This document shows positions 3,755 to 41,439 of a stretch of 64,000 nucleotides of DNA, piece after piece. The notes beneath the pieces were generated by a model. The model was not told the DNA's origin. It ran no database searches and worked only from the letters and a program-made list of their open reading frames with translations. Where the stretch lies: positions 333,356 to 397,355 of the forward strand of contig JBBTTO010000002.1 of the NCBI GenBank assembly GCA_038064195.1. The letters run 5' to 3'. The stretch comes from Patescibacteria group bacterium. GTDB taxonomy: Bacteria; Patescibacteriota; Microgenomatia; Levybacterales; UBA12049. Made by a program: the position numbers and the translations under genes. Every line of letters starts with the position of its first letter. Position 1 is the first letter of the stretch.

Positions 3755-4225
3755 ATGAGACACGCAAAAGTTACTAAAAGAGTTACAGAGCCGGATGAGA
3801 TCTATGGCAATGTCATGGTGGCCAAACTCATCAATCGCATCATGGAAGATGGCAAAAAGACGATTGCTGAGCGCAATGTCTATAACGCTTTCAAAGAACT
3901 TGAGAAAAAAGGTGATCCGATGCAGCTTTTTGAAAGGGCTATCCAAAATGTCGGTCCGAAAATCGAAGTTAAAGCCCGTCGTATCGGCGGAGCTAATTTC
4001 CAGGTCCCGACAGAAGTCAGACACGATCGCCGTATGGCCCTGGCACTGCGCTGGATCGTCGAGGCGGCCCGTAAGAAGTCCAACAAGGACTTCCACTCAT
4101 TCTCTGAGAAATTAGCCGCAGAATTCCTTGCAGCCGCCAATAACGAAGGCGATGCCATCCGCAAGAGAGACACAACCCTCAAACAAGCAGAGGCTAACAA
4201 GGCTTTTGCCCATTTTAGGTGGTAG
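3755..4225 (+). CDS. rpsG: 30S ribosomal protein S7
   Basis: Canonical S7 sequence lying 3 nt after the rpsL stop. Confidence 0.97.
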   Translation: MRHAKVTKRVTEPDEIYGNVMVAKLINRIMEDGKKTIAERNVYNAFKELEKKGDPMQLFERAIQNVGPKIEVKARRIGGANFQVPTEVRHDRRMALALRWIVEAARKKSNKDFHSFSEKLAAEFLAAANNEGDAIRKRDTTLKQAEANKAFAHFRW

Positions 4226-4245
4226 TTTCTATCTAAGGTTAGGCG

Positions 4246-4270
4246 AGAAGCTCCGAAAGGGGCTTTTTTT
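4246..4270 (+). terminator. Rho-independent terminator after rpsG (AAGCUCC-GAAA-GGGGCUU followed by U7)
   Basis: 7-bp stem with a GAAA loop and a T-run at 4264-4270. No fusA or tuf follows. Confidence 0.7.
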
Positions 4271-4284
4271 GTATTCTGATCAGA

Positions 4285-5721
4285 TTAAAAGAGGTTCCAG
4301 ACGTACTGATTGGTGATTTCGTGGTGATAGAGGATTTCTTCAGGTTTTACACGGGTGCCTAACTCGCGCGGGCAACGGAAGCTAGACGCTTCCTTAAAGG
4401 CATGGAATTTTTCTTTGTTATCTTCGCCAAGTATTTTGGCTATAAAATCGCTGCCTTTGAAAAGCCGCATGGCGTCATTGATATTTCCCGGCAGGAAGCG
4501 GAGACGATCACGCTTGCTGGTATCTTTGGTGATTCTGTCTCCTTCAAGTCCTGTGCGGATAAGTGTATAAAGAGCGAGGTAGGGGTTGGCATCAGGTGCT
4601 ACCGAGCGAATTTCAATTCTGGCTGACTTTTCATTACCTACAGGAATACGGATCATTGAGCCGCGGTCAATGGGTGAGACTTTGATCTGATTTGGTGCTT
4701 CAAAGTGCGGGTCAAGTCGTCTATAGGCATTGACACTTGAGTTAAGAATAAGACAAATATCCGGCGCGTGATTGAGCACTCTCTCGATAAAGTCCCAGGC
4801 AATTTTGGACAATCCATCCTGACCATCTTTCTGATAAAAAATATTCTTAGTGTTTTTAGCAAAAGAAAGGTTAATATGCATGCCGCTGCCGTTAATTCCG
4901 GTTACAGGTTTGGGGAGAAAAGTCGCGGTCATACCCATATTCTCGGCTACCTGGCGACAGACGAGTTTGTAAAGTTGTATCTGATCAGCAGCCCTGAGTG
5001 CTTCAGTATAGGAAAAATTCAGCTCAAACTGCGATGGGGCGACTTCGGGATGATCTTTTTCATTGTGAAAACCCATAGCCCGCTGTGCCTCGGCAGCGGT
5101 GTCAATAAAGCGTTTGAGGCGGTCTAACGGAAGCGAGTGATAATAACCACCGGTGGAGATCAATGAAAACCCGTTATTTTTTTCGTAATTGATCTCCGCG
5201 TCTACTCCATCGACCAGGAATCCCTCTATTTCTGCTGAAGCATACACATTGAGGCCTTTTTTGGTTTTAAGTTCCTTTGTCAGCTCCTGGAGAAGTCCGC
5301 GAAAATCTGAGGAATAGGAGGAACGATCCCTATTGCAGACGTTAGCAAACATGATGATTTTTCCCGGACCGAAGATATCAGCCGGAAGCCAGAAAAGGCT
5401 CGTCCAGTCAGGGTCAAGCCTCAGATCCGACTCCATCTGTGCGGTAAAACCACGGACAGAGGACCCGTCAAAAGTGAGATTGTCTGATGAATCAAGAAAA
5501 AACCTTTTATCATAGTCGAGCATATGAAATCTGCCTTCGATATCGGAAAAACAAAGCGTAACAGCTTTGATCTTTTTCTCGTCAGTCAGGTACTTGCGGT
5601 ATTCTTCTTCCTGAGCTTTAGGATCTGTATCATCCCGTTTACCCTTTGCGGTGAGATTCATCTCCTCAAGCTGGTCATAGGGGATTTCGAGGAAACTCTT
5701 TAAAGAATTATCATTATTCAT
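4285..5721 (-). CDS. glnA: Glutamine synthetase family protein (GlnA-type)
   Basis: 478 aa. Carries GS catalytic-domain motifs (SQFE, NGSGMHINLS, NAYRRL) and a beta-grasp N-terminal domain. Confidence 0.88.
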   Translation of the reverse strand: MNNDNSLKSFLEIPYDQLEEMNLTAKGKRDDTDPKAQEEEYRKYLTDEKKIKAVTLCFSDIEGRFHMLDYDKRFFLDSSDNLTFDGSSVRGFTAQMESDLRLDPDWTSLFWLPADIFGPGKIIMFANVCNRDRSSYSSDFRGLLQELTKELKTKKGLNVYASAEIEGFLVDGVDAEINYEKNNGFSLISTGGYYHSLPLDRLKRFIDTAAEAQRAMGFHNEKDHPEVAPSQFELNFSYTEALRAADQIQLYKLVCRQVAENMGMTATFLPKPVTGINGSGMHINLSFAKNTKNIFYQKDGQDGLSKIAWDFIERVLNHAPDICLILNSSVNAYRRLDPHFEAPNQIKVSPIDRGSMIRIPVGNEKSARIEIRSVAPDANPYLALYTLIRTGLEGDRITKDTSKRDRLRFLPGNINDAMRLFKGSDFIAKILGEDNKEKFHAFKEASSFRCPRELGTRVKPEEILYHHEITNQYVWNLF

Positions 5722-5788
5722 ATAATAATTAACATAAATCTAGTACTAATTAACATTAAAGTCAATAGATCAGATCACATTACTTAAC

Positions 5789-5817
5789 TTGACATAGAAA
5801 ATAAGAGTTTGTATACT
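5789..5817 (+). promoter_or_regulatory. Near-consensus sigma-70 promoter TTGACA-17-TATACT driving the T-box leader
   Basis: TTGACA at 5789-5794, a 17-nt spacer, TATACT at 5812-5817. Predicted transcription start is about 5824-5826. Confidence 0.7.
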
Positions 5818-6021
5818 GTCAATCAGTTCATACATGCGTCCCGATGTAAATCGGGGAAGTCTACCGCAGTAGACAAGGGAAGCACCATTCGGAGCCTCCC
5901 ATGCAGCGTAGGAGAAAGCGATTTCCGCATTACTACGACAGAAGGCAACTGTAAAATCAGCCAAAGCGAATTGTCCTGTAAGGGAACTAAGCGCCTAAAT
6001 AAGGATTAATCTTTTATTTAA

Positions 6022-6041
6022 GCGCCGAAAGGCGTTTTTTT
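6022..6041 (+). other. Stem III-like hairpin of the T-box leader (GCGCC-GAAA-GGCGU followed by a U-run)
   Basis: 5-bp GC stem with a GAAA tetraloop followed by U7. It sits 16 nt before the T-box sequence, so it could also act as an upstream attenuator. Confidence 0.5.
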
Positions 6042-6057
6042 ATTAGCTTAATTAAAG

Positions 6058-6089
6058 CAAGGTGGTACCACGGCTTAAGCCCGTCCTTG
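6058..6089 (+). promoter_or_regulatory. T-box antiterminator: helix A1 CAAGG/CCUUG, 7-nt bulge UGGUACC, helix A2 ACGG/CCGU
   Basis: Fits the canonical antiterminator model: a 5-bp A1 helix, the 7-nt UGGNACC bulge, and a 4-bp A2 helix. UGGU in the bulge predicts pairing with a tRNA 3' end ACCA, i.e. discriminator base A73. Confidence 0.65.
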
Positions 6090-6136
6090 TTCCTCATCCG
6101 CCAGTTGGCGGATTGGGAGCAGCGACGGGCTTTTTG
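6077..6136 (+). terminator. Intrinsic terminator of the T-box leader: AAGCCCGUC ... GACGGGCUU, then UUUUUG
   Basis: An 8-9 bp outer stem plus inner CGCC/GGCG pairs, followed by a U-run at 6130-6135. Its 5' arm overlaps the 3' half of the antiterminator. Confidence 0.7.
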
Positions 6137-6160
6137 ATGCCTGAGAGGGGGTGAAAATAT

Positions 6161-6682
6161 ATGGGAAAAGAAAACATACAATTTATAGTCGCAGATGCAA
6201 CACATATCGATGCCGCGAAAAAAGTTTCGGATTGGGTAAGTTCAAATGATGCTATGTTGCCTAAGTCACCTGAACAAGTTCTTGAGAACTTCAGTACCGG
6301 ACATGCCGTGATTGGGTACGATGGTACTGCGCTTGTCGTTCATGCGGCCTTAACTCAGGTCAATTCTGACCAGACTGCCGAAGTAGGGTCGCTTTTTACT
6401 GAAGAGACTCATCGACATATGGGACTTGCACGAGAAGCTGTCCATGTCTTACTGGAACATGGGAGAAACTTGTATCCTGACCATACACTTTATGCAATCG
6501 CAAATGAACGAAGTGCGCCACTCTTTCAAAAAATGGGTGCCAGAGAGATGCAGACAGATGAACTGGGAGATGAAGTATGGGCGTCATGTGATACGTGCCC
6601 ACGAAAGCCTGAACGAGTAGAGGGTTGTCCGTTTAAGTGTTGCGATACGCCTTTTGATCTGACACATGTTAAATCAGAATAA
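6161..6682 (+). CDS. GNAT-family N-acetyltransferase with a Cys-rich C-terminal tail (CxxC-x9-C-x3-CC)
   Basis: Acetyl-CoA motif RHMGLA present. C-terminal WASCDTCPRKPERVEGCPFKCCD looks like a zinc-binding tail. Strong SD GAGGGGG precedes the ATG. Confidence 0.8.
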   Translation: MGKENIQFIVADATHIDAAKKVSDWVSSNDAMLPKSPEQVLENFSTGHAVIGYDGTALVVHAALTQVNSDQTAEVGSLFTEETHRHMGLAREAVHVLLEHGRNLYPDHTLYAIANERSAPLFQKMGAREMQTDELGDEVWASCDTCPRKPERVEGCPFKCCDTPFDLTHVKSE

Positions 6683-6684
6683 TT

Positions 6685-7788
6685 ATGAAACTCTTAAAAC
6701 AACTTATCAGTATAGAGTCAGTTTCGGGGAATGAGAGCGCCATTCAAGAATTTATTAAAGCGTATCTTGTCACGCTGGGATTTAGCCCTACTTCCTATAA
6801 AGGAAATGTAATGGTGAAGATTTCAGGGCAAGATACGCATAAGGCGCTTATCTTTAATGCTCATGTTGATACTGTCGCTGTAGGGGAGATTTCCAGTTGG
6901 GAATATAATCCGTTTAAAGGTATTGTCGAAGATGACAAGGTTTATGGTCTCGGAGCAAGTGACGAAAAAGCAACGATAGCGGTCATGCTTCATCTTGCCG
7001 AGATACTTGTAAAGCAACCTCCAGCAGTCGATGTCTGGCTGCATTTTGTTGTGAAGGAGGAAGTAGACGGGTCAGGGACAAAAGACTGTCTGGAGTGGTT
7101 TACAGAGCATGAGAGGAGGCACTATCAAGAAGTAGCAGGAGTTTTGGGTGAACCTACCGGTCTTGCAAGTATTGAGGTAGCTCATAGAGGAAATGTCTTT
7201 CTTACTCTTACTTCCTTTGGTGATAGCGGTCATGCTTCGGATCCCGCGAAGATCAAAACGCATGCGGCTTTTGAAATGTTTGCTTTTATAAAGAAAGTAG
7301 AAGTATTGGGCAAAAAATGGGAGAAGACATATAGTGATTCAATTTTAGGTAAGCCGACGATTGGTCTTTTGACTTCGATATCAGCCGGAGACAAGCTGAG
7401 TCCGAATAAGTTTCCTGATTCCTGTACCGCAACAATTGATATTCGAACAACTCCGGCCCTACATGAGAAGGTGTTGGCCGAGATTAGTGCGCTGGATAAA
7501 AAGGTCAAGGTCTCATTTAGTTATCCACCTCTTTTTTATGGAAATACCAATTCGGATGAGAGGATTGTAGAGGTAGCAAAAAGAGTGACAGGTTGTCCAC
7601 TCGATATGTCTACCTGGTCAAACGATTTATGTTTTTTTACTGAGCATAGTATCCCGACTATAGTTTATGGACCGGGGAATAAAGAAAGGATTCATAATGT
7701 AAATGAATATTGTGAAGTAGCTAATTTACAGAAATGTCTGAAGCAGTACCAGGGGATAATAAAGGCGTTTGGCGTTACTGGATTGTAA
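6685..7788 (+). CDS. M20-family metallopeptidase/deacylase (ArgE/DapE-like)
   Basis: Carries HVDTV...GASDEK...E M20 motifs and lies 3 nt after the GNAT gene. Confidence 0.85.
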   Translation: MKLLKQLISIESVSGNESAIQEFIKAYLVTLGFSPTSYKGNVMVKISGQDTHKALIFNAHVDTVAVGEISSWEYNPFKGIVEDDKVYGLGASDEKATIAVMLHLAEILVKQPPAVDVWLHFVVKEEVDGSGTKDCLEWFTEHERRHYQEVAGVLGEPTGLASIEVAHRGNVFLTLTSFGDSGHASDPAKIKTHAAFEMFAFIKKVEVLGKKWEKTYSDSILGKPTIGLLTSISAGDKLSPNKFPDSCTATIDIRTTPALHEKVLAEISALDKKVKVSFSYPPLFYGNTNSDERIVEVAKRVTGCPLDMSTWSNDLCFFTEHSIPTIVYGPGNKERIHNVNEYCEVANLQKCLKQYQGIIKAFGVTGL

Positions 7789-32490: not shown

Positions 32491-33867
32491 GTGTTGTATA
32501 ACGGAGTGGGAGAAGCAGACGTTGCTTCTCCGGATTTCCTTGCAGGAGTCGAAGAGCTACTAGAAGATATTAGAGAGCCTGATAATATGTCAGTGCTGTT
32601 GCAAGAAATTGAAGCAAGGGGTGATATTGTCGATGCGTTCCCCCGTGTCCCCTCAGAGATTTTGGATTCTGACTTGGATGATCCTGTTGTACTTTATTTT
32701 CGAGATGCAGGTACGAGAGATATTCTAACTCGCGAAGAAGAAGTGAGCCTTGCGCAAGCAATGGAGCGAGGGGACACGGCTGCAAGAGCGATATTGATCG
32801 AATCAAATTTACGTCTCGTTGCCTCCATAGCGAATCGATATGTTGGTCGAGGCCTTGATTTCCTAGATCTAATTCAGGAAGGTAATATCGGACTGATGCG
32901 TGCAATTGAGAAATTTGATTGGCGGCTGGGGTATAAAATATCTACCTATGCGACGTGGTGGATACGCCAATCTATGACGCGAGCGATTGCTGATAAAGGA
33001 CGCATCATACGATTACCTGTCTATATTATTGAATCTGGTCATAGTATACGAAGAACTGAGAACGATTTGAAGAGTGAGTTTGGTAGGGAGCCAACTGATG
33101 ATGAGGTTGGAGCTGCATCAGGATTTGGCAGAGAAAGAGTAGATGCTATCAAGTCACATACCCAAGGAATTGATTCTCTCAATCGTCCTTTAGATCAAGA
33201 TCCTGATCATGAGAGAGGAGATTTTCTGGCAGATCCGGACAATCTTGAAGAAGGTGTCTTAACCGGTGTGCAAAATCAGGAAATTTTAGACGGGCTTGCA
33301 GGGCTAACAGACAGAGAAAAATTGATCATCTCTATGAGGTTTGGTCTTAAGGGGAGTGATACCCATACGCTTGAAGAGACCGGATACGAGTTAGAAATAA
33401 CTCGTGAGAGGGTACGACAAATTGAAAAAAAAGCTCTTGCCAAGCTAAAAAGAAATAATCATATGCGATCTTTATATTATGGCGATTCGGAAGAGTCAGT
33501 CAGAAGGGCTACTGTGCCAGAACAAGTAGTAGTACCGTCTTCTCATGTGGACACAGTTGAATATGTTCAGTTTTCTCACATTGAAAAGGAGATTTTTAGG
33601 CTTTATGCCAGAGGATTGAGTCTCAAAACGATTGCAAAGATTGCGGGTATTACCAATCAAGATGCAAAAAACTATATTACCAGCATACGGCATAAGCTAA
33701 AAGCTTCCACGAGGACTGAGGCGATAAGTATCGGTACCAGGCTTGGATTACAGACAGATACTGATGGTGGTAGTGATGATCTAGGAATAGAGAATGGTAA
33801 TTCAGGGTTTATTCCTGAAGTTGGATCTCAAAGGGATCCTGATCTGTCTCAGCCTGATAGAGAGTAG
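32491..33867 (+). CDS. RpoD-like sigma-70 factor (regions 1.2-4.2) with an extra C-terminal LuxR/GerE-type HTH domain and an acidic tail
   Basis: Region 2 [16 protein letters not shown]...YATWWIRQ. Region 4.2 [28 protein letters not shown]. Then about 125 extra residues containing [50 protein letters not shown]. Confidence 0.85.
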
Positions 33868-39151: not shown

Positions 39152-40420
39152 ATGAACAAAGTAAAAAAACTCCTTAAAGTACTCGGCCCCGGATTCATAA
39201 CCGGTGCATCAGATGATGACCCCTCAGGCATCGGGACCTACGCACAGACGGGGGCTATGTTTGGCTATAATCAGCTCTGGACGGCTCTTTTTTCGCTGCC
39301 TTTTATGACTGTCGTTCAGGAAATGTGCGGCAGGATCGGGATGGTAACCGGGACAGGGTTGGCCGGAGTACTGAAAATCCATTACACCCGCAAGGTTCTT
39401 TATATAGCCGTCGGGATATTATTTATTGCCAATACGATCAATATCGGCGCAGATTTAGGGGCAATGGCCGCATCAGCCCAACTGATCCTGGGTATCCCTT
39501 TTTGGGTATGGCTGCTTATTATTACCGCGACTACGATCTCGCTTGAGGTCTTTGTCTCCTATCCTGCCTATGCAAGACTGCTTAAATACCTGACTCTCTC
39601 GCTTTTTGCCTACATTGTCACAGTCTTTGTCATCAAGCAGGATTGGATGCATATTCTGTCGGGAACAATCATTCCGAGTTTTACTTTTAATAAAGATTAC
39701 CTGCTAAATATCGTGGCGCTTTTGGGGACAACAATTTCCCCTTATCTTTTTTTCTGGCAGGCAGATGAGGAGGTCGAAGAGGAGATAGAGCATCACCAAC
39801 TCCGTGCGATGGGAAAGGGTGTGCCGAGAATTACCAAGAGAGATATTCGGGAGATGCGACTGGATACGATTGTCGGTATGCTTTTTTCAAATATTGTGAT
39901 GTTTTTTATCATCGTGACGACTGCTTCAACACTGGGAGCACACGGGATAAAAGATATCCAAACAGCCGATCAGGCAGCTTCAGCCCTAAGGCCTTTTGCC
40001 GGGGATTTTGCTTTCCTGCTTTTTGCACTGGGGATCATCGGTACGGGGCTTTTGGCCGTTCCGATCCTGGCAGGATCTGCCTCGTACGCGATTTCTGAGG
40101 CTTTTAATATGAAAGCAGGATTGAGTAAACGATTTACTCAAGCACATGGGTTTTATGCGATAATTGCGCTTGCGACCCTACTCGGATTTTTGATCAACTT
40201 TACCTCAATTAAACCTTTTACTCTTCTCTATTACACGGCTATCCTCAACGGAGTTGCCGCTCCTCCCCTCCTGGTCTTGATTATGCTGACGGCTAATAAC
40301 TCAAAAATCATGGGGAAATATACCAATAACCGGACAGTCAATATGTTAGGGTGGGCTATAACAAGTGTTATGTCTTTGGCAGCCCTCGCTCTGGTTGCAA
40401 GCCTTATCTTCTTCAAGTAG
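39152..40420 (+). CDS. NRAMP-family divalent metal transporter (MntH-like)
   Basis: LGPGFITGASDDDPSGIGTYAQTGA signature and a polytopic membrane topology. Confidence 0.85.
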   Translation: MNKVKKLLKVLGPGFITGASDDDPSGIGTYAQTGAMFGYNQLWTALFSLPFMTVVQEMCGRIGMVTGTGLAGVLKIHYTRKVLYIAVGILFIANTINIGADLGAMAASAQLILGIPFWVWLLIITATTISLEVFVSYPAYARLLKYLTLSLFAYIVTVFVIKQDWMHILSGTIIPSFTFNKDYLLNIVALLGTTISPYLFFWQADEEVEEEIEHHQLRAMGKGVPRITKRDIREMRLDTIVGMLFSNIVMFFIIVTTASTLGAHGIKDIQTADQAASALRPFAGDFAFLLFALGIIGTGLLAVPILAGSASYAISEAFNMKAGLSKRFTQAHGFYAIIALATLLGFLINFTSIKPFTLLYYTAILNGVAAPPLLVLIMLTANNSKIMGKYTNNRTVNMLGWAITSVMSLAALALVASLIFFK

Positions 40421-40431
40421 AATGCCTCTGT

Positions 40432-41439
40432 ATGGATGATATAAAAGATAGATCACAGAAATTGCTCGAAAAAATAGATTTGGGACAAAAAAAGACGCGA
40501 ATCCTTGAGCTGCAAAAGGAAAGTGAAGATCCTGTTTTTTGGCAGGACCATAAGGCAGCAGGCGTGAAGATGAAAGAGCTCTCAACTCTGCAAAAAGAGA
40601 TTGAGGAGCTCGAGTTACTGCAGCTCTGGATAGATGAAGGGGAGATGGAGGAAGCGGGTAAATTACTTAAGAAATTAGAGACCCTCCTTTATTTTACTTC
40701 CCCATATGATGAGGGTAATGCGATTGTGGCAATTCATTCAGGTCAGGGAGGAACTGAGGCGATGGACTGGGCCGAGATGCTTTACCGGATGTATACGAGG
40801 TTTTTTGAGAAAAAAGGCTGGGGGTATGAAATTTTGGATGAAACTCCGGGTGAGGAAGCGGGGATTAAAAGCATTTCTCTGGCTGTTTCCGGCCCTTATG
40901 TGTATGGCCTTTTAAAACACGAAGCAGGGGTGCATCGTTTGGTCCGTCAGTCGCCTTTTAATGCTGATAAGCTGCGTCAGACATCCTTTGCCATGGTTGA
41001 AGTGCTGCCTCAGATAGATCAGGCAGGGGTGATTGAGATAAAAGACGATGAGATCGAATTTGATGCTTTCCGGGCAGGAGGACACGGGGGGCAAAACGTC
41101 AACAAAGTCTCGAGTGCAGTCAGGATCAAGCACATTCCAACCGGTATTGTCGTCACTGCTTCAGTTGAGAGACAGCAAAATCAAAATCGAGAGTTTGCAA
41201 TGAAGCTCCTTAAAGCTAAATTATGGCAACGGCAGGAAGAAGAGCGTCATAAAGAAGAACAGCGTATGAAAGGGGGGTATGTCACTCCCGGTTGGGGCAA
41301 TCAGATCCGCTCTTATGTCCTCCATCCCTATAAAATGGTGAAAGATTTGCGCACTGATGTCGAGACAGGCAATACAGACGCCGTCTTAGACGGTGATTTG
41401 GATCAATTTATCGAAGCGGAGCTAAGACAGTTGTCATGA
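40432..41439 (+). CDS. prfB: Peptide chain release factor 2 (no programmed frameshift)
   Basis: SPF tripeptide (RQSPFNADK), GGQ motif and the RF2 N-terminus in a single frame. No CUU UGA C frameshift site was found. Confidence 0.9.
   Translation: MDDIKDRSQKLLEKIDLGQKKTRILELQKESEDPVFWQDHKAAGVKMKELSTLQKEIEELELLQLWIDEGEMEEAGKLLKKLETLLYFTSPYDEGNAIVAIHSGQGGTEAMDWAEMLYRMYTRFFEKKGWGYEILDETPGEEAGIKSISLAVSGPYVYGLLKHEAGVHRLVRQSPFNADKLRQTSFAMVEVLPQIDQAGVIEIKDDEIEFDAFRAGGHGGQNVNKVSSAVRIKHIPTGIVVTASVERQQNQNREFAMKLLKAKLWQRQEEERHKEEQRMKGGYVTPGWGNQIRSYVLHPYKMVKDLRTDVETGNTDAVLDGDLDQFIEAELRQLS

Follow-up and report, generated by a model that had tools for sequence, protein, structure and literature searches.

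We analyzed a 64,000-nucleotide (nt) stretch of a Patescibacteria group bacterium (contig JBBTTO010000002.1; this whole stretch is called the window below) and predict, from sequence comparison, that positions 5789–6160 hold a promoter and a T-box riboswitch which controls a downstream GNAT-M20 operon by transcription attenuation. The switch is predicted to be specific for arginine, and we assign this reading a probability of about 0.8. T-boxes are textbook riboswitches that sense transfer RNA (tRNA), with a known range centred on Firmicutes and Actinobacteria. The genome considered here is Microgenomates-type according to the names of its M20 homologs (Levybacteria, Roizmanbacteria, Woesebacteria and Beckwithbacteria) and thus belongs to the Candidate Phyla Radiation (CPR), as a first-pass annotation of the window had considered. 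That annotation had also proposed a T-box at this position; it was right in kind, but it missed Stem I (5859–5874) and misassigned the specifier. Orthologous loci, referred to by L numbers, were collected by exact-protein look-up and pattern scans of species-representative genomes and metagenomes, and in about 40 independent ones a T-box core and, after it, a terminator lie 5' of GNAT-M20 or M20-containing operons.

Promoter, antiterminator and terminator of the leader

The core of the switch is an antiterminator at 6058–6089 (all features lie on the plus strand unless stated otherwise), which is aligned at high posterior probability by the Rfam T-box model RF00230 and is also predicted by folding. 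It comprises the full set of T-box antiterminator parts, namely helix A1 (C6058–G6062 with C6085–G6089), a 7-nt UGGNACC bulge (UGGUACC, U6063–C6069) and helix A2 (A6070–G6073 with C6081–U6084). The sequence AGGTGGTACCRCG has a single exact occurrence across the 64 kb. A comparison of 39 leaders (24 distinct cores) shows covariation in A1 and in the bulge-proximal stretch of A2, with UGGNACC as the bulge in every one. The core stands as it had first been drawn. U6066 of the bulge should pair with the tRNA discriminator base A73, again as anticipated.

Overlapping with this element is an intrinsic terminator at 6077–6135, which consists of a hairpin (6077–6132) and a U-run (6131–6135) and was identified by folding and by its equivalents in sibling leaders. 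Its arms are AAGCCCGUC (6077–6085) and GACGGGCUU (6124–6132). Terminator and antiterminator share 6077–6089 and are therefore mutually exclusive, in agreement with the first-pass annotation. As in other T-boxes, the overlapping terminator is the stabler structure: it folds with −42.3 kcal/mol, whereas the antiterminator region by itself reaches about −9.6 kcal/mol, and termination should therefore be the default state. The Shine-Dalgarno region GAGGGGGUGA together with the GNAT start codon (6146–6163) lies outside the terminator helix. The Shine-Dalgarno sequence itself (about 6146–6154) is located 3' of the terminator and its U-run and lacks the sequestration typical of translational T-boxes; the switch is therefore thought to act on transcription.

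Upstream, a sigma-70-type promoter at 5789–5817 (TTGACA, 5789–5794; a 17-nt spacer; TATACT, 5812–5817) agrees with the consensus at 11 of 12 positions and would place the transcription start near 5824–5826. Sibling leaders have TTGACA...TAnAAT promoters at the equivalent position. The resulting leader of about 335 nt, from approximately 5825 to the ATG at 6161, has a minimum free energy of −118.9 kcal/mol (z = −5.7; none of 100 shuffles folds as well). Both the near-consensus promoter and the strongly structured leader had been recognized before and stand, as does the layout of the locus, with the GNAT-M20 operon 3' of the leader and glnA (4285–5721, minus strand) divergent from both.

In the Stem III region, the leader contains a GC hairpin, AAGCGCC-GAAA-GGCGUUU (6020–6037), followed by seven U (6035–6041). 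The hairpin had been noticed, but the element (6020–6041) is more than that: it is conserved, ends in a U-run and was flagged as terminator-like by a terminator scan. An equivalent hairpin with U-run is present in 18 of 31 leaders, compared with 0.12 expected in shuffles, as counted by a detector which requires perfect stems and so overlooks bulged terminators, that of the window among them. The element probably acts as a pause or a structural element, which is speculative. It might offset slow capture of the tRNA by a pause, act as a weak first terminator or supply the U-strand of an extended Stem III. Since the hairpin is missing from some leaders with an ultrashort Stem I and present in L102 with its full Stem I, the kinetic idea is put forward as a hypothesis only.

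A broader version of this idea is a two-checkpoint attenuator, which extends the proposed switch rather than excluding it. Here, 6020–6041 would be a first terminator or strong pause governed by anticodon binding, and the acceptor end of the tRNA would govern the second terminator. The terminator-like signature and its enrichment over shuffles fit this scheme, and without the Stem I platform that speeds tRNA capture (PMC7583486), extra time before the decision point would help. However, 13 of the 31 leaders do without the hairpin, including the shorter leaders with ultrashort Stem I of L025, L033a, L119, L015 and L009, while L102 has it in addition to a full-length Stem I. Moreover, an outer helix encloses hairpin and U-run in many leaders, so that the U-run may be structural, and no alternative fold that would relieve a first terminator was found. 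We consider a second checkpoint unlikely.

The decoding module and its family in Microgenomates

The leaders share a common plan, which consists of a 3-bp base helix, a kink-turn (K-turn)-like loop, a very short Stem I, Stem II, an ACNG-(7 nt)-CNGU hairpin followed by AAAA, a linker, often the GC hairpin with U-run, and the antiterminator/terminator. According to the apical loop of Stem I, they fall into two classes: the window and ten others carry a CGCA tetraloop on a stem of 6 bp, and the other class has a 7-nt loop (G/U)U-CGC-(G/A)-(A/C).

In the window, the base helix of Stem I is formed by UGCG (5835–5838) and UGCA (5902–5905), as predicted by folding and by covariation in the family; its outer pair is UA in 9, AU in 6, GC in 4 and GU in 2 leaders, and UGCG/CGCA in L001 represents a compensatory change. 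Stem I itself is the 16-nt hairpin GUCUAC-CGCA-GUAGAC (5859–5874), identified by alignment, covariation and single-sequence folding. It covaries with, for example, UCCCGC/GCGGGA in L029 and L130 and AUCUAU/AUAGAU in L039. Its apical loop holds the proposed specifier CGC (5865–5867), followed by the purine A5868. A long Stem I with AG bulge and distal loop, which would provide the double T-loop platform for the tRNA elbow, is absent.

Two lineage-specific hairpins flank Stem I in the window and make a four-way junction of the K-turn region. Inserted hairpin 1, CCCGAU-GUAA-AUCGGG (5840–5855), occupies the site of the K-turn-like loop of relatives, where an asymmetric GUUUGA opposite RA sits beside the covarying base helix; L018, L087 and L168 show the canonical GAUGA/GA K-turn motif. 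Inserted hairpin 2 (5877–5900) follows Stem I and precedes the 3' strand of the base helix. The nearest relatives, L001 and L086 (M20 identity 87% and 71%), vary in these insertions: L001, like all other relatives, has no hairpin 1 and carries only a homolog of hairpin 2, and L086 has a different first hairpin, UGUCC-UAUU-GGACA, and a shorter second one. That the functional elements are intact across these leaders despite the differing insertions indicates that they are presumably under selection.

Stem II (5907–5937) pairs CGUAG (5907–5911) with CUACG (5933–5937) and is seen both in the fold and in covariation, with compensatory changes at 5/5 base pairs. It encloses a purine-rich internal loop, GAGAAA (5912–5917) opposite AUUA (5929–5932), and a distal GCG/CGC helix; in the 7-nt-loop class, the minimal Stem II is a 5-bp stem with the loop CAAAAU. 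The purine-rich loop, in its window form as well as in this minimal form, appears to be conserved at the position expected for the S-turn of the actinobacterial class, whose string of 5 purines docks on the codon-anticodon helix. The motif GGAGAAAGC, once offered as an alternative specifier, lies at 5911–5919, one base off from where it had been placed, and belongs to this internal loop.

The following Stem IIA hairpin, ACAG-AAGGCAA-CUGU (5938–5952), then AAAA, contains the F-box-like CNGUAAAA and was recognized by folding and alignment; RF00230 aligns its equivalents in L004, L021 and L119 to its own IIA/F-box positions. The element AGAAGGCAA is indeed found at 5940–5948, but it is not a specifier-loop context as had been suggested. 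Rather, it covers the 3' portion of the 5' strand of Stem IIA and the loop, whose GGC (G5944–C5946) pairs with GCC at 5960–5962, the 3' strand of the pseudoknot helix IIB. Gly, Lys or Arg codons at 5911–5919 and 5940–5948 were accordingly rejected as specifiers, these sites being Stem II and Stem IIA; the earlier view that the specifier is not Gly is retained.

Across the family, the IIA loop is complementary to a segment 8–12 nt downstream, and both strands covary: GGC/GCC in the window is replaced by GGCU/AGCC, GUC/GAC, GUGA/UCAC, AGCU/AGCU, GUUG/CAAU or GUGU/GCAC. A permutation test of cognate versus swapped loop and tail partners gave p ~1e-4, and p remains significant with the IIB helix taken for Stem IIA by the automatic parser in 5 sequences. 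The leader thus combines an apical-loop specifier on a short Stem I with Stem II and a IIA/B pseudoknot, and the single-sequence fold of the window predicts the same helices as the family plan.

The family structure was further assessed with a covariance model, R1, built from ten 7-nt-loop leaders with a hand-set structure. R1 retrieves tetraloop-class leaders outside its seed with 32–44 bits (E = 1e-6 to 1e-10) and also new leaders. In the alignment of the decoding module, 89.5% of cells are paired compared with 58.5% in shuffles, the covariation score is 0.73 versus 0.19 in shuffles and at most 0.16 with slid partners, and 15/17 pairs show compensatory changes. This alignment was fitted to R1, which favours the structure; the low values of the slid controls argue that the covariation signal is real. 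RNAalifold on a plain MAFFT alignment recovered the base helix and part of Stem II only, because the two hairpin classes differ in register. Stem I of the window was assigned by MAFFT and manual alignment to L001, L086, L006 and others, together with the single-sequence fold. A separate small RNA or another riboswitch in 5825–6043 was considered and rejected, as no non-T-box Rfam family matches and the segment aligns to T-box decoding modules.

Between pseudoknot and GC hairpin lies a variable linker (5963–6019) with two local hairpins, as read from the sequences. At this position, L004 (3262–3285), L006, L029, L039, L166 and L167 share a conserved GNRA-capped hairpin, GUGUCGG(C/A)AACGGAG, which may serve as a tertiary contact; the hairpin that the window has there (5973–5987) is a different one. 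Further observations were made in other loci. L033 carries an additional CPR T-box (5763–5962) with an intermediate Stem I, an RF00230 score of 70.5 bits and UAC (Tyr) + A in the specifier slot, where the locus stops short of the regulated gene. In L018 (1700–1880), L166 (770–860) and L175 (45–350), the stretch from the T-box terminator to the start codon contains a second conserved, structured segment; it forms a hairpin GUGGCAG...CUGCCAC, followed by AUAUGGUGAGG...GAACCAU, and was matched to no known RNA.

Specifier codon, tRNA identity and regulated genes

MAFFT aligns the CGC of both loop classes, with G and the following C invariant, the first C present in 23/24 sequences and a purine always next. 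Possible registers are thus CGC (Arg) or GCA/GCG (Ala). A sibling leader in the Gottesmanbacteria locus L043 (76 bits with R1) allows a calibration, as it has the loop GU-CAC-GA and a UGGG bulge. Directly 3' of this His T-box lies a tRNA-His(GUG) gene, with hisG and hisD behind it (L043:3640–4059 and 4076–6094). It is unusual for a T-box to precede both a tRNA gene and a biosynthetic operon. The tRNA-His has C73 and an encoded G-1, and hisG (188 bits) and hisD (413 bits) both score above their curated cutoffs. The His leader therefore places the codon at loop positions 3–5, followed by a purine, in an anticodon-loop-like arrangement, with the bulge N tracking the discriminator. By analogy with it, the codon register in the window would be CGC.

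Siblings in front of the same operon have arginine codons in more conventional settings. For example, the specifier slot of L102, whose Stem I is full-length (RF00230, 80.3 bits), holds AGA + G, and L168 has a textbook specifier loop GAA-CGA-G; similarly, CGA-G is found at the specifier of L018 and L103 and in the apical loop U-CGA-G of L087. The discriminator provides a further test. In L166, the loop GUCGCGA is combined with a UGGC bulge, which calls for G73. The UGGC-bulge variants of L018, L103 and L166 fit a G73 tRNA-Arg but not tRNA-Ala, and the tRNA-Arg(ACG) of L133 has G73. In relatives, the bulge and discriminator agree in all three combinations, UGGU with A73 tRNA-Arg(GCG), UGGG with C73 tRNA-His and UGGC with G73 tRNA-Arg. 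The criterion of a codon plus purine whose amino acid corresponds to the regulated genes points to CGC + purine and Arg.

Three-gene tRNA-Arg clusters, all with A73, were observed in L115 (248–526; UCG, UCU, GCG) and L116 (20–300; CCU, UCG, GCG). They are located about 2 kb 5' of the M20 gene, which in L115 is preceded by the GNAT gene. The anticodon GCG of both clusters is the exact complement of CGC, and A73 matches UGGU. For Arg, bacteria usually have ACG, and a GCG anticodon encoded in the genome is uncommon among them. In the first 60 loci, tRNA-His was the only tRNA gene found. Altogether, it is likely that the window leader is Arg-specific.

The same T-box mechanism could also operate with GCA (5866–5868) as specifier and tRNA-Ala(UGC) as effector, with GCA stacked on the closing C-G pair of the tetraloop. 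A GCA (Ala) register had been brought up before, but for another site; in the true Stem I loop it is a minority alternative. GCA is invariant in 11/11 tetraloop-class leaders, L004 with its A before GCA included, and the closing C-G pair changes to U-A in L039, suggesting that this pair forms. In addition, tRNA-Ala has A73, which matches UGGU, and a one-nucleotide bridge followed by a 3'-stacked triplet seems sterically plausible by analogy with pseudoknots. However, the same-operon siblings L102, L168, L018, L103 and L087 have CGA or AGA and none of them an Ala codon at the specifier slot, and the His calibrator puts the codon at loop positions 3–5, which is CGC. Within the 7-nt-loop class, GCG precedes C in 7 leaders, whereas CGC always precedes a purine, and the UGGC bulge (G73) of L166 does not fit tRNA-Ala. 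Finally, the gene context is arginine, and according to TBDB, Ala T-boxes favour specifiers ending in U, whereas Arg T-boxes favour those ending in C (PMC7778990). Alanine is therefore an improbable effector.

The regulated genes agree with an arginine-specific switch. The first encodes a GNAT acetyltransferase of 173 amino acids (6161–6682) whose best matches are N-acetylglutamate-synthase-type models only, all below cutoffs (NF005840 with 48 bits, PRK12308, CG3035 and PRK07922). The second (6685–7788) encodes an M20 metallohydrolase of the ArgE/DapE family with 367 amino acids (TIGR01910, 193 bits; cutoff 217.6). In L175 (354–6532), argG is followed by a 184-amino-acid protein orthologous to the GNAT, then by argH (500 amino acids), M20, and genes for a methyltransferase and a member of the DDAH/ADI family; the start of the contig falls within a terminator that is a homolog of the one in the L018 leader. 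This operon suggests that at least some Microgenomates make arginine from citrulline or ornithine. L173 has argS 3' of the operon, and no other arg genes were found in the rest of the window. T-box control of a GNAT and an M20 protein had been called unusual; given an N-acetylglutamate-synthase-like and ArgE-like pair with links to argG, argH and argS in relatives, it follows ordinary T-box logic for arginine supply. The pair most likely serves arginine supply, with putative reactions.

In six loci (L009:1096–2487, L025:1204–2490, L033:1188–2483, L094:1117–2493, L099:256–1704 and L119, from 1188), a protein of 428–482 amino acids is encoded instead of the GNAT, directly 5' of the M20 gene and under the same Arg T-box. 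Searches of the 428–463-amino-acid versions against Pfam, NCBIfam and PDB sequences brought up no Pfam or NCBIfam match; the protein resembles ATP-grasp peptide ligases (PGM1, E = 0.005), but only weakly. Within the tetraloop class, the Stem I loop of L004 (3184–3199; likewise L005 and L007) reads AGCA instead of CGCA, the sole exception among the 11 leaders. Elsewhere in the window, 32491–33867 encodes a sigma-70 family protein (regions 1.2, 2, 3 and 4) with an extra C-terminal GerE/LuxR-type helix-turn-helix. At 39152–41439, a release factor reading frame (PCRF and RF-1 domains, 40351–41439, GTG start) overlaps the end of an Nramp transporter gene by about 70 nt; the release factor probably starts further 3' in reality, or a frameshift site plays a part.

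Several points weigh against an arginine-specific T-box in the window. AGCA in L004 retains GCA and loses CGC, and in the CGC register it would be a Ser codon, though the bulge predicts A73. In formal terms, the window loop is a CGCA tetraloop with C-G as its closing pair, and the CGC register requires this pair to be opened. A search for tRNA genes in the 64 kb found none, and thus not the genome's cognate tRNA either. A multi-helix junction takes the place of the K-turn at the foot of Stem I, and R1, run with filters off, places Stem II and IIA correctly but, owing to the two insertions, mistakes the second inserted hairpin for Stem I (7.2 bits). The A2 pair next to the bulge (6070/6084) is A-U and not the canonical G.U; across the 39 CPR leaders, it is A-U or G-C. 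In canonical T-boxes, this pair is a G.U wobble which acts as a steric sensor of tRNA aminoacylation (PMC7583486). Lastly, Rfam at gathering thresholds gave no match across the whole 64 kb. Under permissive settings, RF00230 aligned 5951–6091 with 26.9 bits compared with a gathering threshold of 93 (E = 4e-4 over 551 nt searched), with the antiterminator well aligned and 91 Stem I positions deleted. Sibling leaders score 29–80 bits, none reaching 93, and 84–91 Stem I positions are deleted in the window and its siblings. The first-pass annotation had expected RF00230 to place Stem I and the specifier loop and had named failure to do so as a refutation, a criterion that is too strict for a divergent subclass. 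A decayed T-box with its K-turn broken by insertions, left as a constitutive terminator or a structured 5' untranslated region, would agree with the inserted hairpins, the low Rfam score and the R1 failure, but it is very improbable, given that CGC + purine, Stem II, the GGC/GCC pseudoknot, UGGUACC, A1, A2 and the terminator are all intact, that the same elements are conserved in L001 and L086 with other versions of the insertions, and that a constitutive −42 kcal/mol terminator would silence a conserved operon.

Proposed mechanism and relation to known T-box classes

From the sequence we infer how the tRNA binds and brings about antitermination, as well as what the U-run does, and propose the following course of events. 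By default, the terminator (6077–6135) would form and transcription would stop before the GNAT gene. Under arginine scarcity, uncharged tRNA-Arg, most likely the GCG-anticodon isoacceptor as in related CPR genomes, would bind the leader at two points. Its anticodon would pair with CGC (5865–5867) in the apical loop of Stem I, a contact that Stem II (5907–5937) and the IIA/B pseudoknot (5938–5962) would buttress, and its free 3' ACCA end would pair with UGGU (6063–6066). The bound tRNA would stabilize the antiterminator (6058–6089) and sequester the 5' arm of the terminator, allowing read-through by RNA polymerase. Charged tRNA would be unable to stabilize the antiterminator.

With the transcriptional T-boxes of Firmicutes (RF00230; for example B. 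subtilis tyrS and glyQS), the leader shares the UGGNACC bulge between A1 and A2, the mutually exclusive terminator, a purine 3' of the specifier, Stem II, the IIA/B pseudoknot and an F-box-like CNGUAA, as well as targets in amino-acid supply and a bulge N matching the tRNA discriminator. In contrast to these, the window has no long Stem I with internal specifier loop, AG bulge and distal loop (the elbow-binding platform), it has a junction in place of the K-turn, A-U rather than G.U at A2, an internal hairpin with U-run and a CPR host, and its RF00230 score (26.9 bits) is far below the threshold.

The decoding module rather resembles the translational ileS T-boxes of Actinobacteria (M. tuberculosis and N. 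farcinica), whose ultrashort Stem I was described by Sherwood et al. 2015, as reviewed in PMC7583486 and PMC11297988. Shared features are the apical-loop specifier on a short Stem I without elbow contact and the combination of Stem I, Stem II and a IIA/B pseudoknot of about 3 bp between the IIA loop and the linker. However, the CPR platform is an intrinsic terminator instead of Shine-Dalgarno sequestration, the predicted specificity is Arg (His in a sibling) instead of Ile, and the phylum differs. Moreover, the CPR Stem II may shrink to a 5-bp hairpin with a CAAAAU loop, and the CPR apical loop has 7 nt in an anticodon-loop-like form (xU-NNN-Rx), or, in the window, 4 to 6 nt. On sequence grounds, the CPR leader can be regarded as an actinobacterial-type decoding module joined to a Firmicutes-type terminator platform.

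Previous studies assign these features to different classes. Long Stem I forms present the specifier in a side bulge and short ones in the apical loop, and short or ultrashort platform-less Stem I forms are translational T-boxes, mostly from Actinobacteria (PMC7583486). Transcriptional T-boxes must catch the tRNA before the polymerase gets to the terminator, and for this they 'generally require' the platform (PMC7583486), a contrast repeated in a 2024 study (PMC11297988). TBDB applied its short-Stem-I model only within Actinobacteria and among hits of the Rfam model. A literature search for T-boxes together with CPR, Patescibacteria or Microgenomates, or with arginine or argS, found no paper; this search was limited and is no proof of novelty.

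A tentative proposal, to which we give somewhat less than even odds, is that these leaders represent an uncatalogued Microgenomates T-box subclass. Here, a platform-less Stem I with apical-loop specifier would drive a terminator, the internal hairpin with U-run would serve as a programmed pause or first checkpoint, and the controlled genes would include arginine and histidine genes as well as a tRNA gene. If true, this would contradict the view that transcriptional T-boxes need an elbow-binding platform for fast tRNA capture.

Since the CPR T-box family escapes the Rfam threshold, riboswitch censuses of CPR probably undercount such elements. The family combines an ultrashort, platform-less Stem I with a kinetic terminator decision, features which reviews assign to different classes, and it therefore offers a natural system for asking whether the platform is needed in transcriptional control and whether a pause element can substitute for it. 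At the same time, it provides a physiological context, arginine supply, for a widespread and poorly annotated GNAT-M20 pair. Hosts with reduced genomes appear to sense the charging of arginine, and in a sibling of histidine, directly. If the proposed subclass holds true, it would represent tRNA-sensing control in organisms thought to be minimal in both regulation and biosynthesis.

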